Assembly (NCBI GenBank): GCA_030167865.1
Contig: JALAGF010006552.1
Span: 62,001-85,634 of the forward strand
Source: Craspedostauros australis
Lineage: Eukaryota
Direction: 5' to 3'
Length of the DNA: 23,634 nt
Shown here piece by piece: positions 3,269-20,858 of the stretch (positions within the stretch are counted from its first letter, which is position 1; every line of letters starts with the position of its first letter). A program made the translations under genes and the position numbers. Below the pieces are notes generated by a model that worked only from the letters and a program-made list of their open reading frames with translations, had not been told where the DNA came from and made no database searches.

Positions 3269-4300
3269 GGTTGCTGAGGACGCCCACGTTCCTGCTTTGG
3301 GCTGTACGATTCGATCAGCGCTCGCCCTTTCACGTCGATTCGCTTTGCTTGTGCGTTGCTGTGAGGGGCAACCCACAGTGAGATGATGGGCACAATTGGT
3401 GATGAACTCGGAAGCAATACAGCACAGGTTAAGGGCATGCAACGATGGTGGTTGTGTTGCGCACTCTCTCGGTTTCTCCCAGCTTCAGCAGCGACAACCG
3501 CGAATCCTTCGCAGCTCTGTCTTTGTCTTCGCCTTGGTATGCGTCTTCTGCTTGGTATGTGCACCTGCGTTGGGGCACTGCCCGTATTTGTGTGAGTATT
3601 GGTGCTGCCACGATTGCCGGAGTGGGATACGACCTCCTGATTCGTTCTCTGCGGATACAGAGAACACGATGCTCCAGCACTCTGCGTGGGTGGAGAGGTG
3701 TTCTAGATCGTATTGGTGGATGTCAACCTGGTTGCTCACCGTGATTGTGTTTGTGATTGTGTTCGTTTTGCTTGTGTTCGTTTGCTTGTCCCTGGCATCT
3801 GCGTGATTCTCCCAACCGCTCTCGTCACTCCAGATGTCTGCCGCCAACGCCTTTCTATTGTCTCCGCGGTGGATGGGTGCCAATACTAATACCGATACCA
3901 ACGCTGCTGGTGAGAGGGGTGTGTACTCTAATAAGCCGTATATTACAATGGTACGACCTATGGTACTATGATATGGTATATAGTAGAATGTGTGTCCGTG
4001 TTCTGTGTGGATGTGGATGGTTGTGATGAACCGCTTGTCGCACGAGTGAGAGTGGAGGCAGTTGATGGAGTTTGCTCAACTTGGACCGACTCAATTCAAA
4101 TCTCGCTTCACAACCTTGTCCGCTGCTTTTGCAGTCGGCTGTGCTTGCGTTTGTGATTGTGCCTTTGTGGTTGATGCGCCGATGACTGGTTGGTTCTTGG
4201 CTTCTTCCCTTGGATGGAGATGATGAACGTCACCCCATCGACAAGCCAACCAACCAACCTGCCAACCAAACAACCAACGAACAAATCGAAGGAGCAACGA

Positions 4301-4326
4301 AGAGAGAGAGAGAGAGAGAGAGAGAG
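4301..4326. repeat. (AG)13 microsatellite
   Basis: Read directly from the sequence. Confidence 0.95.
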
Positions 4327-4633
4327 GCAAACGACAAGGGGAGAGCAAAAGAAAAGAAGGAAAATCTTTTCCTCGGAGGCGAAGGGAGCAAAGGATTGTG
4401 GGCATCACCTCCCTTTTTGTTTTGTGTCTCTTGCCGAATTTTTAATTTTTGTCGCAGAACAACGCGCCAAACTCGTTACTATTTTAGCCAACGAACGGAT
4501 ACGGATAACGTCTGAACGGTGACATCAATGTCAGTTCGGGACAAACTTCCCCTGACTCCAAACTTCTCTTCACAACTTCGCTCCGTACCCCCATCTTCCC
4601 GAAGCACCACGGAGCAAAAAGGGAGGGCAGTGT

Positions 4634-4666: not shown

Positions 4667-6232
4667 CGCTACAACAACAGCATCAGTGTCATCATTGCTA
4701 TCAGCGTCGCCCTCCAACTATCCTACAATACTTGCATGTATTTTAGAATTGCATGGTCGTACCACCAAGAACTCCATCTGTCTGCTTGTCACCCACTGCA
4801 CGCGTCCAACTTTGACTGCTGGTGGATGTGTTCCAGGTACAGAGTACGCGTATTCGTGTCTACCTGCCTGCTCTGAGTGCAGATCTCTCTCCTCTAGACT
4901 ATACATACTCACGAGTACAAGGCATGCGCTTGCTTTGTTCTGCTGTGATACGTATGATACAATCCTTTACGATAGATCGTAGGTTTGCATTGCACATCCT
5001 CGACTATTGCTCCCGTCATGTTTAGTATTTTCCTGGGGTGCGACCGACATCGAAAGAGCGAAGTGAACCACAGCGCTGTATCCCAACCCAATCACATCTA
5101 ACACATCTAGAGAGAAACAATGCATTACAATATTATAGTATATGTTAGTTGTACGATCTATTATTAGAACAGAACAGAGAAGGGCAGGACATGGTGCCGT
5201 ATCACGAATTCGAGCATGTGCCCATGAGGACTCCAGATCGTAGTCTAACACACGACACATTTGGGCTTGCGTTTTGCGACGCTCTTCGAATTCTTCTGCA
5301 TCTATCCACGTCTGAATATCGCCCGGTGCACGTTTGGAACACACAATCGTGTTGTTCTCAATCCGTTGAGTCGAGACCACGAGAATTCCAACAAGGAAAT
5401 TGACGAAGGCTGCCGTCTGGCCGTGCATCCGTATCTTATCGCTTCCCTCTTCACTAAAGTCGCCTACGCGAAATCCTACGACGTTTGTGGTAAGCCCAGA
5501 TCTCGCCACTGACCACACCAAAAATCATCCTCTGAGGTGAGTCGACGATGGTGGAAATGACGACGATGAAAGCACCATGACGGCCCCGCGATGGCGCGCC
5601 AGGATGACGGCATCAAGATGACAGGAAATCGATGGAAGAGGCGGTCCGAACGATGCCAGGAGCGTTGGAAATGGCCACCTTGATGCTCCTGTGGATGTGT
5701 TTGTGTGTGTGCGCCGTGGTGAACATCGATGTGAAAGACGACAGCGTTGGCGATGACGATGATGATTACGCCGGCATTTGCCTCGAGTGATGCAGCCAAC
5801 ATCAAGGCAGCGCAAGGCAAGGCATGATTGGAAGCGACGAAGGTAGCAACAACGGCGGAGAGAAGAAGAGCGCACTTCCGTTGGCGGTCGACGCATGACA
5901 ACGGTGACACCTCGTGGTGCATCGCAGTGGTCTGTTTGAGAACAGACCAACAAAAACCACCCCAAACACGCGCGCACACACACACACACCACCGATCGTG
6001 AAGTTCCAGTACTCGTTCCATCGTCATTTCACAACACAAATCAAGCACATCAAGCAACTCACAAAAACGATACCCCGCTGCTTCGGCCTCTTTGTTCCGC
6101 TCGTGACTTTCAACACGCCGCAATCGACGCCCTCTGACCACTGATCTCACAACGCGAACCCAAACGCGCACCAACACAACAGGAACAACCGCGGAAACCT
6201 TATTCAGCCAGCAACAACCCAACACGTCCATC

Positions 6233-6481
6233 ATGCCAGTCGATCTCCTTCATCCATCCCCAGATGCCGAAATCCGCACTCACAAGCTGAAGCGACTTGT
6301 GCAGTCTCCAAATTCCTTCTTCATGGATATCAAGTGCCCAGGATGCTTCCAGATCACGACCGTCTTCAGCCACGCGCAGACAGTCGTCCTTTGCGGGAAC
6401 TGCAATATCATGCTCTGCCAGCCAACCGGCGGTAAGGCACGCCTTACAGAGGGATGCTCCTACAGAAAGAAGGTTGACTAA
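6233..6481 (+). CDS. RPS27: 40S ribosomal protein S27 (eS27), intronless
   Basis: 82 aa: [41 protein letters not shown]...[20 protein letters not shown], the canonical eS27 sequence with a C4 zinc finger. Confidence 0.98.
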
Positions 6482-10010: not shown

Positions 10011-10105
10011 GCGCGATCACAGATCACTTCAAACAACGAGCACAGGCATCAAACTTCCACAAAATACCGATGACTACCGCAAGCACTGAGGCCGACACTC
10101 TCACC

Positions 10106-10351
10106 ATGCGTATCTTCTCCGCCGACGAGTGGCAGCAACTGGATGAGTATTTAGCATATTGCGACGATGACGATGAGCTCCTCATGACAAGCTGCTCGAT
10201 GTTAGACTCCTCCTTTCCATGTCATGGTGAACCTGATATTCGCACGCTTGGCAATGAGATCGTTGAAGCCAGATCAGACCTCGGCTCAGACACCAGCAGC
10301 AACTGCAACTGTGACTTCAGCGGCAGCACTCTCCGTGACGACGACGGCAAG
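10106..10351 (+). CDS. CRAL-TRIO-like/DUF6824 protein paralog 1, exon 1 (acidic N-terminus)
   Basis: ACC-ATG at 10106 is shared with paralog 2. It has 82 codons (MRIFSADEWQQLDE...DDDGK) ending at donor AAG|GTGAGT. An in-frame ATG at 10070 exists only in this copy. Confidence 0.8.
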
Positions 10352-10537
10352 GTGAGTACTTGCGCAATGGCGATGATTCTCCGTAGCCCATGATGACGAC
10401 TACGACCGCGGAAATGCCTACCATAATAGTACGGATGAAGTTGCAACCGCAATGCCGACTGTGAACCAAACCGCATGGTTGAAACAGCTCACAATCCATC
10501 GTCGTCGTCGTCGTCGTCTCTCTCTCTTCATGCCCAG
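10352..10537 (+). other. Intron (186 nt), paralog 1
   Basis: GTGAGT donor, CTCAC branch-like motif, (TCG)n(TC)n pyrimidine tract and CCCAG acceptor. Phase 0, in frame with ORF 10475..12319. Confidence 0.8.
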
Positions 10538-12282
10538 ATCGGGAAACCGAATGAGGATACTGACCACAGCAATCCTGCTTGCGCAGACACATTTGTGAAC
10601 GCCGCAATAGGAGCAGATGCGCAGCAAACCACAAGGTTGACCAACGAGGACATCTTGAACACATTCAAGGTCCTCGATATCATCGCGCAAGAGCTGCACG
10701 CGATGTCACCCGAAGAACGCACGCACATACATGAGGATATCACCGGGAGCTCGACTCCCTGCGAGGAGACCCCCGAGTTCCTGATCGCCAAGCTCGACGA
10801 TATGGAGATGGAGCTGGCCATGGCGACCAGCAACACGACCGCCTACAACATCGCCAGGCAGACGAATCAAGCCTACATCGAAGACACGGACCTGCGCCTC
10901 AAGTTCCTGCGCTGCACCTCCTTCGACTCGTACAAAGCCGCAATGCGATTGATCGCCTGGTGCGATGCCAAGCTGCACTTGTTCGGTCCGCATGTGCTCG
11001 GCAGAGACGTGCTGCTGTCCGATCTATGCCCAGGAGCGATCGCTCTGCTGGAAGCTGGGAATGTACAACCGCTTCCATGCAAGGATGTTCATGGAGGTCG
11101 CATAATCGCAGCGACAGAGTTCGTCCCGAGCATGTTCGACACCTTGGCGAATGCCCGGGCCCTGTTTTACGCAGCCATGACGGTTGTGGAAGACGTCGAC
11201 GCACAGAAGAACGGAGTAGTTATGGTGCATGCACTGGACAAGATGATGCCAAATGTAACGCAAAAACAACGAATGAACATGTGCATTTGTGCGCAGACCA
11301 TCACGATCACGCCGGTGAACGTGAAGAGGATGTACCTCCTATCAGACGATACGGAGGAGATGAGGGCCATGGTAGATATTTTGCAGCTTTCGCTGGCCCG
11401 TCATACTCGCCACCGATTCAAGCCATTCTTCGGTACGCTGGCTGATAACATCAAGAGTCTCTCTTCGCACGGCGTGTCACCTCAGGTCTTGCCATTCAAT
11501 GACTGGGGGATGCTCAAAATGGTCGGAGCCAGTGCTTGGATGATGTATCGCAGAGCGCTGGAAGCCTGCCGAACCGCAATGACCACGCGGACGAGAAACG
11601 GGAATGACACCTCTGTCACTCACGATCATCCTGAGAGCAATGGTGCCAATGACGCAGCGGAGATGCAAGTCGTCCAAGACGCTGAAGGAGAGGACAACAA
11701 TACTGCTGTAGATCTCCAACTAGCAGAATTGTATGGAGATATCCCGGAAACTGCAGTCAAGAATGATATTGAATCACCAACTTCCTCAACTTTGCCAAGG
11801 CAGGTCTCGCTACAGCCGTCAATACCACCACTGCCGCCGCCACAGTTGCCAAAACCTCTTTCATTGCTGCCACTCGTGGCAGCTGATCCAATTGAAAGCG
11901 ACAGCACTCGTCCAAGTTGCAGTCCAACTGAAGTTGACATTCTGATGGGACGTGGAAAGCCGTTTCAAGAGCACTCCGGCAACCAGTACATGAAGGCAGT
12001 CATTGCTGATATGTTCGACGAGTATGACAAAGCACCAAGGTGGGCCAAGCTGGACATCGCTGGAAACCTGGTGCACAAGATGCAGGAGCGCAAGAGCCGC
12101 TTCCTCAAGAAGTGCAAGGAGACAGGCTGTTGGATCGAGGTCACCTTCGTGGAAGCACGGGACAAGGCCGCGCATGGCTTCCGCAAGAAGCGTGAGATGG
12201 ATCTCCTTCGGGCAAGAAGAGATGGGAGACTGCCGCCCGCGACGAAGAAACGGACGAGGCGAGCATCATCGAAATCGAGCAA
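10467..12282 (+). repeat. Near-identical duplicated tract, copy 1 (partner about 16016-17841)
   Basis: Visual alignment shows high identity from AAACCGCA(T/G)GGTTGAAACAGCTCAC in the intron to GAAATC(G/A)AGCAA near the stop codon. Confidence 0.92.
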
Positions 12283-12319
12283 GCGCGCTGCAGTGACCTC
12301 CCTGAACGGAAGTCTATGA
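10538..12319 (+). CDS. CRAL-TRIO-like/DUF6824 protein paralog 1, exon 2 (spliced protein about 675 aa)
   Basis: LRLKFLRCTSFDSYKAAMRL...KLHLFG is a CRAL-TRIO N-terminal-like motif. PTEVDILMGRGKPFQEHSGN...RFLK...WIEV...ARDKAAHGFR matches the DUF6824 pattern. The tail is basic (KKRTRR). Confidence 0.88.
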   Translation: MGKPNEDTDHSNPACADTFVNAAIGADAQQTTRLTNEDILNTFKVLDIIAQELHAMSPEERTHIHEDITGSSTPCEETPEFLIAKLDDMEMELAMATSNTTAYNIARQTNQAYIEDTDLRLKFLRCTSFDSYKAAMRLIAWCDAKLHLFGPHVLGRDVLLSDLCPGAIALLEAGNVQPLPCKDVHGGRIIAATEFVPSMFDTLANARALFYAAMTVVEDVDAQKNGVVMVHALDKMMPNVTQKQRMNMCICAQTITITPVNVKRMYLLSDDTEEMRAMVDILQLSLARHTRHRFKPFFGTLADNIKSLSSHGVSPQVLPFNDWGMLKMVGASAWMMYRRALEACRTAMTTRTRNGNDTSVTHDHPESNGANDAAEMQVVQDAEGEDNNTAVDLQLAELYGDIPETAVKNDIESPTSSTLPRQVSLQPSIPPLPPPQLPKPLSLLPLVAADPIESDSTRPSCSPTEVDILMGRGKPFQEHSGNQYMKAVIADMFDEYDKAPRWAKLDIAGNLVHKMQERKSRFLKKCKETGCWIEVTFVEARDKAAHGFRKKREMDLLRARRDGRLPPATKKRTRRASSKSSKRAAVTSLNGSL

Positions 12320-14420
12320 TGACAAGATACGATCTGTGCGTGCACAGAGTGGAACATCACAGGAACGATCCGTTGATTGGATGGAGATGGCTTCCTTCAG
12401 GTCCATGCGAGTATTGTGCGCACACAAGTACCAAGACTGAAAAACTAGGGTAAAAGTCATGTTGAAGTCATTGTTATGATCGTGGCGGAGTGAACCTTGA
12501 ATGGGAGCTTCATTACTGGTGCAGCGGCTGGAGACGCATGTCCTAGCTCTACCCTGCGCGTACCTATTCCCATTGAGCTCACCGTGCCAGTGGCGACCCA
12601 TCAATGTTATGTTTCGTGTTCGTACTTTGGTAGGTCCAGCCAAGTCACTGGAGTCACGACCTCATGACAATATACAACCACTCATCGGGACACCCTTGCA
12701 GCAAATGACAATACCATATGGTTGAGACGAATACGGGACACACAAACCAAATTCTATTCGAGGAGCTTCGACGAAGTTCCAACAAACGCTGTTCGTGAAT
12801 GTCCGTTATTATTCCAGACCTAACGTATGGGTCAAACCAAGACCATATCTGAACGTCTGATGACCTCGGATGAGAGAAGCACCACTGTATAGAGTGAGCT
12901 ACTCAACGATACGCATAATGAGGGAGGAAACATCTACCCAATACCTCTCTCAACATCATTTGGGAAACAGATTAAAGAGAGCACATCCCAACGATTCTTT
13001 GTCCGCCCCAGACGTTCATCCCGAAGCACAATCATGCTACTCCAGACTCGCGCTGGTCATCTAGCTCGTTATATCCAGACGAGTGGAATGAGTCCGTCTC
13101 GTCAGGACGTAACTGTAGTGACACCTTGCTGTTGCATTGATGACAGATCAACACATGTCCTTGCAGCGCTCAATAGTTCCATGCTGGTTGGCAGTGGAAG
13201 CGCAGATTGAGCCGTCCCAAAACGAAGAACAAAACGGAACAGAGTCGGAGGGAACAATTTCCGTGGATCACAGGAAAAGTGAGCAAACTGGACAGAACAG
13301 AGGGAAAGACACAAAACTCCCGACGACGCAAAACGACAATGACAACTTCACGTGATCACATCAATGTGACGGCTGCACCAGCATGTGCGACGACATCACC
13401 CAATGGCTTGGAGAATGATGTTCATCGGTCAAGAGCACGGTGCACCCCTTTGACGAGTCAGATCGGGGACCAGACGACAACTGAGAACAGTCCATTCTTC
13501 GTCCCGTCTTGATCACTCGGATCCTTCCTTCGTCATCTGCGACCAATGGCGTCATTTCCAGAGGCAACGAGAAGGACGGAAACCAGCAGATGAGAAGCCG
13601 AGAGCGAACGCAAAAGCGACACTCATTGGCATGTGCATGGAAGGTCACGAACAGACTCTGAGGAGCCCCGCTTCACCACGCGACGAGGAATCTCGGCCCT
13701 CGCGCATTCAGCACAGGCAGTCGCGAGATGCCCCTGACGACAGCATTATCGCATGGCACAACCTTGCTGAAAAAAGCAACCATGAATGAGGTTGGAGGCG
13801 GTTGCATACATCACAATTTGTGCGATGGCATACAAGATGCAAGAGCGCACAACGCACAGGACTCTGCGACGGGGGTGCGATCACATCAAGTACCAACCTG
13901 ACACACGTGATCAGGTGGGACCTTGCATAGCGTATAGAGAAGCACAACGCAGCGCGCGACTCTATTGGACTGCACTGGACGCCGTCTATGCGCGAGTGTA
14001 CCAGCTTTCTATTCGCGGACATGGCGAAGTCAGATCTCATTCTGGATAGATACGAGGCGAAATCATTGTTGGCTCACATCTTTGCAGATCTGCAAATACG
14101 CAGAGCAACTCCGCCCGTGCCGAGTACACCCGACACCGGTGGTCATTATTTGAACAGCCATCATAGAATCGTGAGCAGTTGGAAAGGATGATCGCTCTGT
14201 GAGGATTTTACTTCACTCCGCACTGCGAGACACTTCGTCGACACCAATTGCCTTGCAATCTCGAACCTTCTCGGCAACTTGAATGCCTCAATCTCAAAAG
14301 TGTCGCACTCATACCATGCCACTACGAGGAGAAACGGTCCCGGCCCAATTCTTGTGCTGCGCCGTCATCCTATCATGCTGCCATCCTCAACAAGATAATG
14401 CTCGACAGAGCCGCTCCGGG

Positions 14421-14438
14421 AGAGAGAGAGAGAGAGAG
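14421..14438. repeat. (AG)9 microsatellite
   Basis: Read directly from the sequence. Confidence 0.9.
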
Positions 14439-15427
14439 AACTTGATAGCTACATGCAATACCTCTCACCCGTCTTCAAAACAAGTACAATGTAATGGAAT
14501 GGAATGCTACAGATATTATGTAATACATTCCTTCATCTTCTGTTTAGCATTTTCATCAGCACGCGGGTGCACCATACTCTGCTATTGTACAACAATAGGT
14601 TACTCGAACAGCCGACTACTCCAGCAAACGAGTATTGAAATAGCTGGCTCTCTGCTAATATCTCGAGGTCATGGCCCTCGCATCTTGGAATTCTTTTCTC
14701 CCCTTCGAGCAGCTAGTGGAATTCAATGGTTCCTCATGCACCTTTCGTTCCTCGCAATCTTCTGTCTCGCGAGTGTTCATCGTTCAGGAATTCGCTGGCG
14801 CACCACTCCATAGAACGTTTTCGAAACTGTTCCATGGAGTGTGCCTCGCGTTGTGCGAGAAGCTGCGGAGTGGCCATGCGCAAAACTGCACGGTAAATAC
14901 CAGAACGTTGGTACGACATCAATTCAATGCCGCAGGCACGAGTACCACGAATAGTCGCGACGCCTCATAATTTGCGTACTCAAACAGACACTGCGCGGTG
15001 GAGTAGAGTAGAGCCATCTCCCCGGCTCGCGCGGGCACGATCTGCTCAACATCCCAACACTGGGAAGAGGGGATATTGCGAACACGCGTACTTGTACGTA
15101 CGAGTATCCGCACCAACGAAGACCTGCTCGTGTCTCAGTCATTGCCTCTGGTTCGACCACGTGCTCGAAGAATCCCGCGGCAACGCCACACAAGAACATG
15201 ATAATGGAACCTACCCAGCGTTTAGCCACGGGAGCGAACTTCACTCGGAACAAACTTGAAGCATGTACTCGTACCACACATCAGCAATACGCAGTATGAG
15301 CAATACGCAGTATCAGCTCTACGCCAGTCCCCACGTGAAACCCTTCCCAGCATCACAAGCAACGACAACTACGCAGCTTTTGCAAAGCTGACGTTTTGCT
15401 GCACTCCTGCCATGGAACCGGATGCAG

Positions 15428-15470: not shown

Positions 15471-15573
15471 TTACTGGTATACTTACAACATCACTTCAAG
15501 CATCAGACACACACGTCAGAGTTCCGCCCAAACATCAGCCACGACCGCAGGCACTGAGGCCGACACTTTCACC

Positions 15574-15834
15574 ATGAACATCTTCTCCGACGACGAGTGG
15601 CAGCAACTCGATGAGCAGGTCGCGCTTTGCGTCGATAATGATGATCTCTTCTTACCAGACTGCTCTTTCTTAAAAACCTGCTTTCCATCCCATGACGATG
15701 CCGAAGAGGGCGAGCAGAGTGGTCACATGCTTGGCAATGGAATTGTTGAATTCGGATCAGGCCTCAACTCAGAGACTGGCGGCCGCTGCAAATGTAACCA
15801 CGGCGACAGTACTGCTAGTGACGATGATGGAAAG
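15574..15834 (+). CDS. CRAL-TRIO-like/DUF6824 protein paralog 2, exon 1
   Basis: ACC-ATG at 15574, 87 codons (MNIFSDDEWQQLDE...DDDGK), donor AAG|GTGAGC. Homologous to paralog 1 exon 1. Confidence 0.8.
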
Positions 15835-16096
15835 GTGAGCACTTGCGTGCGACTATTGATGATGATTCCCCACCTCATGGATGTTTTCGACATCCCACAG
15901 GACGCGTCTGTAAAATTCACGAGCGCAGACGCGCATACTGACAGATGCAACCACAACAGCGGTCGAAAACTGAGGTTGCAGACCGCAAGCACATTCACGA
16001 GAAAAACATCGACGAAACCGCAGGGTTGAAACAGCTCACAATCCATCGTCGTCGTCGTCGTCGTCGTCGTCTCTCTCTCTCTCTCTTCATGCCCAG
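15835..16096 (+). other. Intron (262 nt), paralog 2
   Basis: GTGAGC donor and CCCAG acceptor at 16096. Phase 0, in frame with ORF 16154..17878. Confidence 0.8.
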
Positions 16097-17841
16097 ATCG
16101 GGAAACCGAATGAGGATACTGACCACAGCAATCCTGCTTGCGCAGACACATTTGTGAACGCCGCAATAGGAGCAGATGCGCAGCAAACCACAAGGTTGAC
16201 CAACGAGGACATCTTGAACACATTCAAGGTCCTTGATATCATCGCGCAAGAGCTGCACGCGATGTCATCCGAAGAACGCACGCACATACATGAGGATATC
16301 ACCGGGGGCTCCACTCCCTGCGAGGAGACCCCCGAGTTCCTGAGCGCCAAGCTCGACGACATGGAGATGGAGCTGGCCATGGCGACCAGCAACACGACCG
16401 CCTACAACATCGCCAGGCAGACGGATCAAGCCTACATCGAAGACACGGACCTGCGCCTCAAGTTCCTGCGTTGCACCTCCTTCGACTCATACAAAGCCGC
16501 GATGCGATTGATCGCCTGGTGCGATGCCAAGCTGCACTTGTTCGGTCCGCATGTGCTCGGCAGAGACGTGCTGCTGTCCGATCTGTGCCCAGGAGCGATC
16601 GCTCTGCTGGAAGCTGGGAATGTACAACCGCTTCCATGCAAGGATGCTCATAGAGGTCGCATAATCGCAGCGACAGAGTTCGTCCCGAGCATGTTCGACA
16701 CCTTGGCGAATGCCCGGGCCCTGTTTTATGCAGCCATGACGGTTGTGGAAGACGTCGACGCACAGAAGAACGGAGTAGTGATGGTGCATGACCTGGACAA
16801 GATGATGCCAAATGTAACGCAAAAACAACGGCTGAACATGTACATTTGCGCGCAGACCATCACGATCACACCGGTGAACGTGAAGAGGATGTACCTCCTA
16901 TCAGACGATACGAAGGAGATGAGGGCCATGGTAGACATCTTTCAGCTCTCGCTGGCCCGTCATACTCGCCACCGATTCAAGCCATTCTTCGGTACGCTGG
17001 CTGATAACATCAAGAGCCTCTCTTCGCACGGTGTGTCACCTCAGGTCTTGCCATTCGATGCCGGGGGGATGCTCAAAATGGTCGGAGCCAGTGCTTGGAT
17101 GATGCAACGCAGAGCGTTGGAGGCCTACCGAACCGCAATGACCACGCAGATGAGAAACGGGGATGATTCCTCTGTCCCCTACGATCATCCTGAGCGCAAT
17201 GGTGCCAATGACGTAGCGGAGATGCAAGTCGTCCAAGACGCTGAAGGAGAGGGCAACAATACTGCTGTAGATCTCCAACTAGCAGAATTGTATGGAGATA
17301 TCCCGGAAACTGCAGTCAAGAATGATATTGAATCACCAACTTTCTCAACTTCGCCAAGGCAGGTGTCGCCACAGCCGTCAATGCCACCACTGCCGCCGTC
17401 ACAGCTGCCAAAACCTCCTTCATTGCTACCACTCGAGGCGGCTGATCCAATTGAAAGCAACAGCATTCGTCCAAGTTGCAGTCCAACTGAAGTTGACATT
17501 CTGATGGGACGTGGAAAGCCGTTTCAAGAGCACTCCGGCAATCAGTACATGAAGGCAGTCATTGCTGATATGTTCGACGAGTATGACAAAGCACCAAGGT
17601 GGTCCAAGCTGGACGTCGCTGAAAAGCTGGTGCGCAAGATGCAAGAACGAAAGAGCCGTTTCCTCAAGCAGTGCAAGGAGACAGGCTGTTGGGTCGAGGC
17701 CACCTACGTGGAAGCACTGGACAAGGCCGCGCATGGCTTCCGCAAGAAGCGTGAGATGGATCTCCTTCGGGCAAGAAGAGATGGGAGATTGCCGCCAGCA
17801 ACGAAGAAACGGACGAGGCGAGCACCATCGAAATCAAGCAA
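16016..17841 (+). repeat. Near-identical duplicated tract, copy 2
   Basis: Direct repeat of about 10467-12282. Confidence 0.92.
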
Positions 17842-17878
17842 ATCAACCAAGCCCATCTCTCGAAAGAAGCATTTTTGA
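16097..17878 (+). CDS. CRAL-TRIO-like/DUF6824 protein paralog 2, exon 2 (spliced protein about 680 aa)
   Basis: Same motifs as paralog 1 and the same exon length (1782 nt). About 45 aa differences by hand count before a divergent 11-aa tail. Confidence 0.88.
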   Translation: MGKPNEDTDHSNPACADTFVNAAIGADAQQTTRLTNEDILNTFKVLDIIAQELHAMSSEERTHIHEDITGGSTPCEETPEFLSAKLDDMEMELAMATSNTTAYNIARQTDQAYIEDTDLRLKFLRCTSFDSYKAAMRLIAWCDAKLHLFGPHVLGRDVLLSDLCPGAIALLEAGNVQPLPCKDAHRGRIIAATEFVPSMFDTLANARALFYAAMTVVEDVDAQKNGVVMVHDLDKMMPNVTQKQRLNMYICAQTITITPVNVKRMYLLSDDTKEMRAMVDIFQLSLARHTRHRFKPFFGTLADNIKSLSSHGVSPQVLPFDAGGMLKMVGASAWMMQRRALEAYRTAMTTQMRNGDDSSVPYDHPERNGANDVAEMQVVQDAEGEGNNTAVDLQLAELYGDIPETAVKNDIESPTFSTSPRQVSPQPSMPPLPPSQLPKPPSLLPLEAADPIESNSIRPSCSPTEVDILMGRGKPFQEHSGNQYMKAVIADMFDEYDKAPRWSKLDVAEKLVRKMQERKSRFLKQCKETGCWVEATYVEALDKAAHGFRKKREMDLLRARRDGRLPPATKKRTRRAPSKSSKSTKPISRKKHF

Positions 17879-18687
17879 TGCAGGAGTATGATTTAGTATG
17901 TACCTATTACATGTGGAATAGAGGACCAAGGACTTGACCCGTTGGTCAGATGGAAGTGGAATCACTAATGTTAGTCATCGTGTTGCATGTCCACATACCG
18001 CAATATAAGTCAAACCTGCAATCACCATTCATCAACCATTCATCTGCACACATGAGCAGCAGAGATAGACAGGAAAACAGATCTCAGGTTTTGATCTTTG
18101 GGTGATGCTCGCGCTTTTGCATGGTTGGACACCAGATTCATGGTCTCGCATCATCAACTTTGCGATGTCCATCTGTAGTGTAACGTGCGTACGCACCAAA
18201 ATAGCAGGAGAAGGAGCGGAAGTACAAGCGGGTCGTCAGACGAGCGCACGTCTTCGACTGCTTTGAGGCGTGCGCTAAAAGTTATCAATATCTCGACGGT
18301 ATCTTACTATGTGGTATGTACATGTGATACTTCATCAGTGCAAGGCGATCTCGCTTGTTGTCGAGATGATCAAGCCATCGCCACTGAAATTGTCGTCCTT
18401 GTCCCAAGTTGCGGAGGTTGTTCTGCCGTTCATGCACCACCGGCAACGCTTTCTATGTTCCTATATCTCTGACCGTGCCCCAACTGCGAAAGATCCGTTG
18501 GCATCCCAACAAAAAGTGATTCATCGATGAAGCGCGCCTTCTCACCTTGACGATTCAGCATGAGAATGGAATGGTGCATGCTCAAGTGGGGCAGAGTAGA
18601 GCTTGCACACGGCGGAGCATGATAGGGTGGGCGACTCACGGCGCGAGCGCAAAGCGTGATGTTCTCAAATGGAGAATTTCGAACCAT

Positions 18688-18693
18688 GTGTCT
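18688..18693. repeat. Target-site duplication GTGTCT (left copy; right copy at 19051-19056)
   Basis: An identical hexamer directly flanks both LTR ends. Confidence 0.9.
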
Positions 18694-18786
18694 TGTTAAA
18701 ATAGCGCGCTGCGGAATCGAACCACGGAGCCAGTCCACGCCCTGCATGAACACAAGAAATTAACGCTTATAACCCATGTCGCGACA
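18694..18786 (-). repeat. 3' LTR (93 bp)
   Basis: TGTTAAAATAG...TGTCGCGACA, identical to 18958-19050. Confidence 0.95.
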
Positions 18787-18794
18787 CCCTCCCT
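18787..18794 (-). promoter_or_regulatory. Polypurine tract AGGGAGGG
   Basis: Plus strand CCCTCCCT lies immediately next to the 3' LTR. Confidence 0.8.
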
Positions 18795-18946
18795 AATTCT
18801 TGGATTCATGCCCTTGAGCCCCCCTATCATGAGGACCCCCCACACTCTATCTTTATACTGCCGCTGTAGGCAGTCGGCAAGTTTCGGGTGTTTCTGTGTG
18901 TTTTTGTAGCAGGGGTGGGTACCAGCCGACGGAATCGAACCTTAGG

Positions 18947-18957
18947 CCACGCTACCA
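18947..18957 (-). promoter_or_regulatory. Primer-binding site TGGTAGCGTGG, probably for initiator tRNA-Met
   Basis: Abuts the 5' LTR. It is complementary to a tRNA 3' end CCACGCU-A-CCA, implying an A1:U72 pair and A73 discriminator, as in eukaryotic initiator tRNA-Met. The host tRNA sequence was not verified. Confidence 0.75.
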
Positions 18958-19050
18958 TGTTAAAATAGCGCGCTGCGGAATCGAACCACGGAGCCAGTCC
19001 ACGCCCTGCATGAACACAAGAAATTAACGCTTATAACCCATGTCGCGACA
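18958..19050 (-). repeat. 5' LTR (93 bp)
   Basis: Identical to 18694-18786. Confidence 0.95.
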
Positions 19051-19103
19051 GTGTCTCCCGTCGCTCCCAACGACGAAGTCTTGCCAACGATCCAACAATA
19101 GAC

Positions 19104-20858
19104 CTATTCATCCACAATGATTGCTGGAGACTCGCTTCGAGGGGAGGTTTCAGCGTCAGCATTGGGGTGGACATCGGGGTCGACATCAGGGCTGGTCGTA
19201 TCACCGTCGGTGTTTTGGCCATTGGTACTGTTGGCATCCTCACCGACTACGGCATCCACCTGCGACTGCGACTGTGGCTCTGGCGACGCCTGCGCCCCAT
19301 CCACCAAGGTGCTCAACCAGGGTCCATCATCAGTGTCATCATGTTCCTCAACCCCACCATTGTTGTCGCCATTAAAATCTAACGATCCATCCAGTTCCAG
19401 TTGAAGCGAAGCATCGCTGGCTCTTTCTTCAAGACCTTGCCGTCGGCGTTCCCACAGATACATCAGCAGGGTTACAGAGGTGGATTGGAATACGAAGATG
19501 GCGCTGATACCAATCATCGCACACGTGAAGAACCAGTGCTTCAGAACGTACTGGTATGGCTTCAGCTCTCTTCCAATACGGACGTGGGCTGCGCTGACTT
19601 GCACATCGTCATTGTAGAGATCGTCATCGTGAGACGTTGTCCATTCTATCGACGCTGTTGGAGAGCTTGCGCGCTGTGTCCGTCGTCGCCGGTTTGTTCT
19701 GCTCACTAACCGAACAGTGATGTACCGTAACGGATGCTGCTTTCGTTCCATGACGTAATGATATGACGGGATCACGATGGTTCGAGTTTCTGGGATGGCA
19801 CCGACGAGATGTGGCACCAGCAGCGTCCATTTTCGAATCAGCGATATCCAGTCACTTTCGTGCGGGTGTTGCGTGGATCGCACAGATGTTGCCAGGGTCG
19901 TTCCATTTGCGGATTGCAATGTCACGTGCACACCGAAGATGCCCAACTCTTGGTTGGTCAGCGATTCTGGAAGTTCCAGCGCGATTTCGATGGTGTACGG
20001 TTGGTTTGCCTTCAACACGGAGCGAGATTGTGGTTTGGGGTGGTGGCCGTCAAGGTATGGTTCCCATTGCGTGTGCTTGGTGAAAAGGTCGGCAGCCGCC
20101 CAAGGCGATTGTTGCAAGGTACGCCGCTGATCGACTGAAAGATTGGGTATTTGGTTCTGCGGTGGCATCTGAGGTTGTGCTTGGGCTTGAGTTTGAGCTT
20201 GAGCTTGCTCATGCGATGGCGATGAGTGGGAGACTGTCTCCTGTTGCGACTTGACGCAAGCCTCGTGATTGCTCTTGCTGCTGTTGCCATCATGATTGAT
20301 GGCGATATCTGTCTCATTTTGTTTGCATTCTTGTACCAGCTCATTCTCCAGTTGATGCTTTCCATCCTCCTGTATCTGCATCTGCATCTGTTTCTGCTGC
20401 AGCTCCAACCACCGTTGTTGCACGAGATGATGTTCAGTTGGATGGGTGGACATCCCAGTGTAATCGAAGTAGAGTGGCATCGTGATGTCGTGGGATGGCA
20501 TCACAATGATGTAGAACAGTCCGTAGGACAACACGGATGTCGAGAGGATCACCATGGCTATGCTCCAGTAGATGACGAGCTTTTGCAACAAGGGAATGAA
20601 GCCCATGAATTCATCTGCGCTGGTTCTGCTGTCATGATCGTTGCCATTGTTGTTTGCACCGTGGTTGCCACCTCCGTCTGTTGCATTGTGCACGGAAGAT
20701 GAGCGATGCAAGATGTTGGAGTTTCCATTGCTCATCGCGATGGCTGTCGTTGCCCATGATGGCACGGGCAGTCCGTACGCAGACGAAAGCAACAGCACAT
20801 CAGACGCAGTCGAAGCCAGGCGGTGAACAATGTGTTGGTCTTGGGAGCTGTCGGTCAT
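19104..20858 (-). CDS. Seipin family protein (lipid droplet biogenesis, BSCL2-like), apparently intronless, 584 aa
   Basis: TM1 is followed by YGLFYIIVMP...PLYFDY. The lumenal signature YTIEIALELPESLTNQELGIFGVHVTL is present, then TM2 WFFTCAMIGISAIFVF and an acidic disordered tail. Confidence 0.9.
   Translation of the reverse strand: MTDSSQDQHIVHRLASTASDVLLLSSAYGLPVPSWATTAIAMSNGNSNILHRSSSVHNATDGGGNHGANNNGNDHDSRTSADEFMGFIPLLQKLVIYWSIAMVILSTSVLSYGLFYIIVMPSHDITMPLYFDYTGMSTHPTEHHLVQQRWLELQQKQMQMQIQEDGKHQLENELVQECKQNETDIAINHDGNSSKSNHEACVKSQQETVSHSSPSHEQAQAQTQAQAQPQMPPQNQIPNLSVDQRRTLQQSPWAAADLFTKHTQWEPYLDGHHPKPQSRSVLKANQPYTIEIALELPESLTNQELGIFGVHVTLQSANGTTLATSVRSTQHPHESDWISLIRKWTLLVPHLVGAIPETRTIVIPSYHYVMERKQHPLRYITVRLVSRTNRRRRTQRASSPTASIEWTTSHDDDLYNDDVQVSAAHVRIGRELKPYQYVLKHWFFTCAMIGISAIFVFQSTSVTLLMYLWERRRQGLEERASDASLQLELDGSLDFNGDNNGGVEEHDDTDDGPWLSTLVDGAQASPEPQSQSQVDAVVGEDANSTNGQNTDGDTTSPDVDPDVHPNADAETSPRSESPAIIVDE

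Follow-up and report, generated by a model that had tools for sequence, protein, structure and literature searches.

The 23.6-kb stretch of DNA analyzed here, hereafter referred to as the window, contains two copies of a 93-nt sequence separated by a short interval. The question raised by this locus is whether these repeats delimit a mobile element and, if so, of what kind and by what means it might be transcribed and mobilized. The positions of the relevant features are provided in Table 1. The two direct repeats are 100% identical, start with TGT and end with ACA, and lie 264 nt apart when measured from start to start, with an interior of 171 nt between them and a total length of 357 nt. Neither repeat can be extended, the preceding bases being t in one case and a in the other and the succeeding bases being c and g, respectively. 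Touching the outer end of each repeat is the hexanucleotide GTGTCT, and its two copies match perfectly. A target-site duplication (TSD) of 5 bp was considered and rejected because it is not compatible with both junctions. Given this misfit and the fact that the repeats cannot be extended, the TSD is assigned a length of 6 bp.

Table 1 Coordinates of the element, its internal motifs, and the adjacent reading frame within the window
Feature	Position	Strand	Remarks
Left TSD copy, GTGTCT (on +)	18688..18693		Same as 19051-19056; adjoins repeat
3' LTR, 93 nt, minus-sense TGTCGCGACA...TATTTTAACA	18694..18786	-	100% identical to 18958-19050
Polypurine tract AAGAATTAGGGAGGG	18787..18801	-	13/15 purines; final 8 nt all purine (18787-18794)
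Non-coding interior, 171 nt	18787..18957	-	No ATG ORF >44 aa, no Pfam match
Interior T-arm/box-B-like motif GGTTCGATTCCG, then TC-GGCTGGT-A-CC	18930..18941	-	Repeat family D2
Primer-binding site TGGTAGCGTGG(CC)	18945..18957	-	Adjoins 5' LTR; complement ..CCACGCUACCA
5' LTR, 93 nt	18958..19050	-	Identical to 3' LTR
LTR box-B/T-arm motif GGTTCGATTCCG	18976..18987; 3' LTR copy 18712-18723	-	CA-GCGCGCT-A next
Box-A-like TGGCTCCGTGG	18986-18996	-	Overlaps LTR box-B motif
TTTT, LTR 86-89	18962..18965; also 18698-18701	-	Possible Pol III terminator or R/U5 end
TATAA, LTR 16-20	19031..19035; also 18767-18771	-	Possible Pol II TATA box (putative function)
Right TSD copy, GTGTCT	19051..19056		Adjoins repeat
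Neighboring seipin-domain ORF	19104..20858	-	PF06775, E=1e-36

The element reads as an LTR retrotransposon located on the minus strand, and it is on that strand only that its signals are coherent. Read in the minus sense, the 5' LTR extends from 19050 to 18958 and ends with ...GCGCGCTATTTTAACA, and TGGTAGCGTGGCC comes next at a distance of 0. The primer-binding site (PBS), TGGTAGCGTGG(CC), which corresponds to 18945/18947-18957 in reverse complement, is positioned at a distance of 0 from the 5' LTR. At the other end of the interior, likewise at a distance of 0 from the 3' LTR, lies the polypurine tract (PPT), AGGGAGGG, which is the reverse complement of 18787-18794 and contains purines at all eight positions. 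A longer version of this tract, AAGAATTAGGGAGGG, shows 13 purines in 15 positions (reverse complement of 18787-18801). The complement of the PBS, ..GGCCACGCUACCA, has the form of a tRNA 3'-end with U72, A73, and CCA. An A1:U72 base pair is a mark of the eukaryotic initiator tRNA-Met, and the PBS, the complement of which (..CCACGCUACCA) displays U72-A73-CCA, is presumably of the initiator tRNA-Met type. Ty1 is primed by the initiator tRNA-Met. The first eight nucleotides of the PBS are the same as the first eight that follow the LTR of Ty1-H3, for which the sequence beyond the LTR is printed in a primer starting at nt 335 (PMC7055915).

The element has no coding capacity. The longest ATG frame lying wholly within it encompasses 44 amino acid residues, and a search with its stop-to-stop frame of 81 codons gave no Pfam match at E ≤ 1. 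The z-scores for folding are -1.23 for the element, +1.29 for the LTR, and +0.63 for the interior, none of which is remarkable. TRIMs are defined as LTR elements of less than 1000 bp that encode no proteins and have an interior bounded at its two ends by a PBS and a PPT; according to the introduction of the same paper, they are known from plants, hymenopterans, cestodes, and bivalves (Kojima 2024, PMC10886601). In common with these, the element possesses two LTRs with TG..CA ends, a PBS and a PPT that bound a short non-coding interior, a length of 357 bp with no protein encoded, and a TSD, here of 6 bp. Both the PPT and the PBS are at a distance of 0 from their respective LTRs, and TGGTAGCGTGG, the putative tRNA-binding site, begins with the eight nucleotides found after the Ty1 LTR. 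The differences reside in the 6-bp TSD, the very short LTRs of 93 nt, and the diatom-like stramenopile host. Because the hallmarks of an LTR retrotransposon are combined with a lack of coding capacity, the element is classified as a TRIM, and in all likelihood it is a real and intact one, of textbook structure and 357 bp in length, on the minus strand of a diatom-like nuclear genome. Weighing against this assignment are the single copy seen and the 6-bp TSD, which is less usual than the 4-5 bp of TRIMs and Helenus.

The individual signals would be expected by chance at frequencies of 1/4096 for the 6-bp TSD, 1/256 for the TG..CA ends, 1/64 for TGG in register, and 1/256 for eight purines in register. 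The joint occurrence of the TSD, the ends, the PBS, and the PPT on one strand and on their proper sides is far beyond chance. These components of the anatomy, together with the absent ORF, are direct observations. A preliminary description of this DNA had proposed a TRIM-like element with identical 93-bp LTRs (TGT..ACA), a perfect TSD, a 171-bp interior without gag or pol, a PBS, and a PPT. The LTRs are present with 100% identity, GTGTCT abuts both of them, and the element holds no ATG frame of more than 44 residues and no Pfam match. The TRIM-like reading is borne out by the LTRs, their TG..CA ends, the TSD, the in-register PBS and PPT, the length below 1000 bp, and the lack of an ORF. The PBS and the PPT were also correctly noted, but both are present in the minus-strand reading of the element only.

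We infer that the element follows the standard LTR-retroelement cycle and, likewise, its mobilization in trans, the identity of its primer, the start and stop of its transcription, and its recency. An RNA extending from the start of the 5' LTR to the end of the 3' LTR would be packaged by the Gag/RT/IN of an autonomous LTR element. A host tRNA of the initiator-Met type, with the 3'-end ...CCACGCUACCA, would bind to the PBS and prime the synthesis of minus-strand DNA, and the plus strand would be primed from the AGGGAGGG tract. Integrase would then join the TG..CA ends across a staggered cut of 6 bp, leading to the duplication of GTGTCT.

Annotations of the TRIM class already exist for a diatom. 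In Phaeodactylum tricornutum, 27 "putative TRIM/LARD" were annotated (Rastogi et al. 2018, PMC5859163), TRIMs/LARDs were annotated in the brown alga Ectocarpus (PMC3145265), and 240 "potential TRIM" were listed for the haptophyte Tisochrysis lutea, in which the non-autonomous TE classes were not hand-checked (PMC5963040). These belong to the same class as the element, but they are pipeline classifications, and the comparison is one of class label alone; what the present element adds to such labels is a full anatomy. TRIMs are short, gene-proximal, and easily overlooked. An apparently intact, anatomized copy provides a seed for tracing the family, its solo LTRs, and an autonomous partner in the host genome, and the element could also be employed as an insertion-polymorphism marker. 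Extreme smallness and a non-autonomous nature are shared with SMART, the small LTR retrotransposons of 292 bp from plants (cited in PMC10886601), a likeness drawn from description rather than from sequence. The retrozymes are likewise extremely small non-autonomous LTR elements (PMC5680766), but they differ from the element with respect to the hammerhead ribozyme, for which no Rfam match was found within it.

A 12-mer, GGTTCGATTCCG, is carried by both LTRs on the sense strand and recurs in the interior after 16 nt. We take it to be a canonical tRNA T-arm with the box-B consensus GGTTCGANNCC. This T-arm/box-B motif had gone unmentioned in the preliminary description. Following the LTR copy, at the spacing of a tRNA, are CCGCA (the 3' strand of the T-stem), GCGCGCT (the 3' strand of the acceptor), an A at the discriminator position, and TTTT, which is the only sense-strand run of four or more T residues in the element. 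The interior copy is followed by CCGTC-GGCTGGT-A-CC. A box-A-like sequence, TGGCTCCGTGG, spans LTR 55-65, where it overlaps box B at LTR 64-74, and represents the sole match to the pattern TRGCY..YGG.

The nearest described kind, as judged by such motifs, would be Helenus/TRIMp3. Helenus is a TRIM whose LTRs contain tRNA-derived sequence and was placed together with Cassandra and Ajax under the name "TRIMp3" (Kojima 2024, PMC10886601). Its tRNA-derived sequence was identified via Censor similarity to tRNA/SINE2, its members are 311-1263 bp in length with a TSD of 4 or 5 bp, GGTTC is conserved in its box B, and its box A follows the pattern TRGCY...YGG; Table 1 of that study includes fungi, six animal phyla, and Selaginella, and no stramenopile (PMC10886601). 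Among the 15 papers listed of 24 since 2024 that use "TRIMp3" or "Helenus", none concerns diatoms to judge by its title. The element and Helenus have in common the TRIM structure, a putatively tRNA-related LTR sequence on the sense strand, a box B (GGTTC...), and a size within the range of 311-1263 bp. The box B, GGTTCGATTCC, is present in both LTRs and in the interior, as known here from one copy. The element differs in that only the 3' half of a tRNA, namely the T-arm and acceptor, is recognizable, and the box-A-like sequence overlaps box B rather than lying upstream of it at a tRNA-like spacing. It differs further in having a second T-arm module in the interior, a 6-bp TSD as opposed to one of 4 or 5 bp, and an LTR module that is complementary to the PBS. 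Through its tRNA modules the element becomes a candidate Helenus-like element, which would be the first in a stramenopile, but it is not filed as Helenus because the box-A spacing fails and the TSD is 6 bp. Cassandra and Ajax, the TRIMs that carry 5S rRNA, would be analogous in that their LTRs bear a small-RNA-type Pol III module, and the R of Cassandra, at 18 bp, is very short (PMC10886601). The element differs from them in lacking 5S similarity: within it, Rfam gave no match to 5S rRNA at the gathering score and none among the matches with E ≤ 10. Should conservation of its box-B modules be demonstrated, the concept of small-RNA-promoter TRIMs, as embodied by Cassandra, Helenus, and Ajax, would reach the SAR supergroup.

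Nested within the TRIM assignment is the possibility that the LTR carries a tRNA-derived remnant that recruits TFIIIC and Pol III, such that the element would be transcribed in the manner of a SINE and mobilized in that of an LTR element. We regard this as somewhat unlikely. In its favor, GGTTCGANNCC is found three times in the 23.6-kb window, in each instance on the sense strand of the element, versus an expectation of 0.21 for both strands. In addition, the copies in the LTR and the interior agree over all 12 positions amid dissimilar flanks, a pattern suggesting that the motif is constrained or that the two arose from separate tRNAs. The tRNA-spaced CCGCA-GCGCGCT-A followed by TTTT, and the agreement of the box-A-like TGGCTCCGTGG with the pattern TRGCY..YGG, point in the same direction, as do the Helenus definition itself, namely a TRIM with tRNA-derived LTR sequence, and a size range that includes 357 bp. 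Searches for a tRNA were less favorable. ARAGORN with default settings identified no tRNA genes in the window, and with relaxed settings 2 of its 19 candidates in the window fell within the element, which is the background level. No Rfam match attained the gathering score; a partial match to the tRNA clan at 18935-18991 on the minus strand (E=0.023) counts for this possibility, but its score of 16.7 bits is to be compared with a gathering score of 70. The LTR appears to resemble that of Helenus, yet no whole tRNA-like sequence is detectable. The D-to-T spacing is missing as well: because the box-A-like motif overlaps box B, the known type-2 promoter is absent. Furthermore, the run of four T residues in the 5' LTR would halt Pol III ahead of the interior, the TATAA at LTR 16-20 permits ordinary transcription by Pol II, and the single copy allows no assessment of conservation. 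For Helenus itself, Kojima 2024 reports no demonstration of Pol III transcription (PMC10886601).

A bolder extension concerns the primer. With the addition of CCA, LTR 78-85, written as ..GCGCGCUA, would pair with the PBS over 10 bp that include one G.U pair, at a computed -17.8 kcal/mol; an equally good pairing with the PBS was obtained for 12 of 5000 random 8-nt ends, and this result speaks for the extension. A trimmed, CCA-tailed tRNA-like RNA derived from the LTR could itself anneal to the PBS. Under the bold reading of the complementarity as a self-supplied primer, the element would constitute the first stramenopile Helenus-type TRIMp3, in which the top-half-like 3' part of a tRNA serves as the TFIIIC/Pol III entry and a trimmed, CCA-added RNA ending in ..GCGCGCUACCA pairs over 10 bp with the PBS of the element that encodes it. 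Were this true, the element would supply the primer for its own reverse transcription, but we consider the combination distinctly unlikely. Complementarity of the LTR's tRNA-like part to the PBS was sought in Helenus and none was found (Kojima 2024, PMC10886601), and that observed here can be explained as a U5-PBS hairpin in cis, which is included in the fold prediction. The plainest reading of the LTR-PBS complementarity is indeed such a cis hairpin or, alternatively, shared descent from an initiator-like acceptor. Self-priming in cis of the Tf1 type was rejected by reasoning: because the U5 strand paired to the PBS adjoins it, cleavage would detach the template.

To return to the element as a TRIM of the ordinary sort, the preliminary description had considered it to be very young and had suggested a possibly active family dependent on an autonomous partner such as a diatom Ty1/copia element. 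No further copies are present in the 23.6-kb window, in which BLASTN with a word size of 7 gave the self matches and others of at most 28 nt with E ≥ 0.46. The 22-nt LTR-PBS junction had no matches in a metagenome scan and none in viral contigs. A second metagenome scan with the pattern boxB-N-TGGTAGCG-N-boxB yielded one locus only, and it contained no copy of the element; this locus was rejected as a relative, as the contig that contains it is GC-rich, bacterial or phage-like, and devoid of LTR structure. Public sequencing runs provided a hint of a different kind. One of three runs contains the locus (X1, share 0.59), and the other two (X2 and X3), from the same study, gave no matches; whether X1 is an RNA or a DNA run is not on record. 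On the seipin side of the element, a 640-nt contig of X1 is identical to 19021-19660 and has a depth of 13.1, and the contigs of the other flank have depths of 3.75-7.36. The contigs of the element itself have depths of 140.1 (18757-18823), 103.9 (18825-18881), and 147.4 (18852-19050). The last of these covers, without a break, the whole 5' LTR from its outer end (19050), the PBS, and the interior as far as 18852, and it shows one extra T at 18900 relative to the window. The element sequence is therefore present at 8-11 times the depth of the flanking seipin contig in a form that is not letter-identical to the window copy, although the depth of a Logan contig does not give a copy number, nor is it a good measure of expression. 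The excess, which is suggestive only, would correspond to several genomic copies or to abundant element RNA. Two of the X1 contigs (4 and 7) overlap the LTR by 30 nt, the rule for bridging being 31 nt. Among the X1 contigs listed, the intervals 17871-18225 and 18510-18722 are uncovered, and such holes prove nothing; no joint of the empty-site form is found among these contigs, and the junction between the 3' LTR and its flank lies within the uncovered 18510-18722. The proposed family accordingly has the 8-11-fold depth as a hint on its side, and against it the lack of a second copy in the window, the metagenome, and the viral scans.

With respect to age, the two LTRs differ at 0 of 93 sites, from which the rule of three sets only an upper limit of about 3% on their divergence. 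The "very young" of the preliminary description, which itself called the dating weak, is possible but weakly supported. Later recombination between the LTRs of different copies is argued against by the intact TSD. Nothing was found to support the Ty1/copia partner, and the TSD of 6 bp contrasts with that of 5 bp reported for the fungal Helenus that depends on Copia (Kojima 2024, PMC10886601). It also differs from the 4-bp TSD (TTCC) of the diatom element Blackbeard. The main text of Maumus 2009 contains no tRNA or PBS information. In the Pfam scan for a partner, reverse transcriptase, integrase, and Gag were absent from the 46 frames covered among the 101 stop-to-stop frames of at least 90 amino acid residues in the window (the remaining 55 were left out). 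These 46 frames comprise 42 plus four long ORFs taken from seven proteins that were scanned separately.

The same observations bear on the proposal that the element is a one-off derivative of a single autonomous element that lost nearly its whole interior after or during one insertion, and hence a dead single-copy relic rather than a member of a miniature family. Internal deletion is a known origin of TRIMs (Kojima 2024, legend to Figure 1), and one copy is what was observed across the window, the metagenome, and the viral scans. The intact TSD and the perfect LTRs show, however, that either the 357-bp form itself was integrated or a full-length form was deleted precisely between the PBS and the PPT. 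In addition, 93 nt would make a very short LTR in an autonomous element, and the X1 contigs of the element, at 8-11 times the depth of the flank, represent an abundant form that differs by 1 nt. For these reasons a deletion relic is judged very unlikely. That no mobile element exists here at all, the locus being a local 93-nt duplication with LTR-like signals arising by chance, is scarcely credible, given that nothing specific apart from the single copy speaks for it, that the 6-bp TSD, TG..CA, PBS, and PPT are jointly far below chance, and that the flanks are unrelated to the element, from which an insertion and not a local duplication is deduced. The best similarity between flank and element had a p value of about 0.03 among four tests, and a GGTTCGA match in the flank had one of about 0.81. 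Nesting of the element within an older copy or a tRNA-like target was rejected in the absence of any significant similarity between flank and element.

The TRIM is located 47 nt 3' of the stop codon of the neighboring seipin-domain ORF in the minus sense, and both have the same orientation. The insertion site is probably the 3' UTR of the seipin gene. Because of this position and orientation, the element may provide or change the 3'-end signals of that gene, which is of relevance to algal lipid biology in light of the role of seipin in lipid-droplet biogenesis. A search of a large protein collection for seipin homologues returned three matches, with identities of at most 35%. As for the host, the "probable diatom" of the preliminary description is backed by two DUF6824 proteins in the window, as identified with Pfam, and by the Atlas clusters nearest to the window, in which the commonest phylum is Bacillariophyta (scores of 0.90-0.92). 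These similarities support the assignment of the window to a diatom-like nuclear genome. The Pfam matches among the scanned frames of the window were Seipin, DUF6824 (twice), and Ribosomal_S27e, and weak matches under the cut-off were observed for Ion_trans and, on the seipin ORF, for PFF1_TM.

Listed in the following table are the features identified in the window. The presence of the ribosomal protein S27e exon confirms a eukaryotic nuclear context.

Features identified in the window, with coordinates and strand
Feature	Position	Strand	Basis or remarks
Ribosomal protein S27e exon	6107-6478	+	PF01667, E=5.9e-26
DUF6824-encoding ORF 1	10475-12319	+	profile match
DUF6824-encoding ORF 2	16154-17878	+	profile match
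Seipin-domain ORF	19104-20858	minus	profile match to seipin domain
(GA)n microsatellites, two	4286-4331 and 14402-14439		similar left flanks TCGA.GGAGC / TCGACAGAGC

The TRIM-like element lies 47 nt past the stop codon of the seipin-domain ORF (window 19051-19106), and the two share the minus-strand orientation. It thus probably resides in the 3' UTR of the seipin gene. A 640-nt contig from X1, a public sequencing run whose kind (RNA or DNA) is not on record, matches positions 19021-19660 at 100%; it starts within the seipin gene and extends as far as the LTR, of which it covers the first 30 nt.

On the other side of the element, the run yielded three contigs over positions 18289-18495. One is identical to the window (18398-18495), and the other two are diverged, the first displaying 12 differences in 138 nt and the second 7 differences plus one gap in 98 nt. 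The diverged contigs suggest that either another haplotype or a paralogous locus is present.

This flank also contains a third T-loop-like GGTTCGAA, 2 nt outside the target site duplication (18671-18687, minus sense ATGGTTCGAAATTCTCC). When the flanks were aligned locally with the element, no significant similarity emerged (p ~0.81 for the GGTTCGAA match). The motif is therefore probably a chance occurrence rather than a remnant of an older copy or a target resembling a tRNA.

The two DUF6824 ORFs are separated by ∼5.5 kb. A comparison of positions 10073-10798 with 15541-16357 reveals stretches that are 78-97% identical, including 300 nt at 97%, and the two genes seem to have been duplicated in tandem recently.

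The locus L001, matched in a metagenome by the box-B pair pattern derived from the element, belongs to a GC-rich contig that is bacterial or phage-like and unrelated to the element. No LTR structure was found at L001. Its positions 1491-1560 are intergenic, lying between two ORFs, and contain two GGTTCGATTCCG motifs ∼46 nt apart. This stretch may correspond to a small tRNA-like or regulatory RNA.
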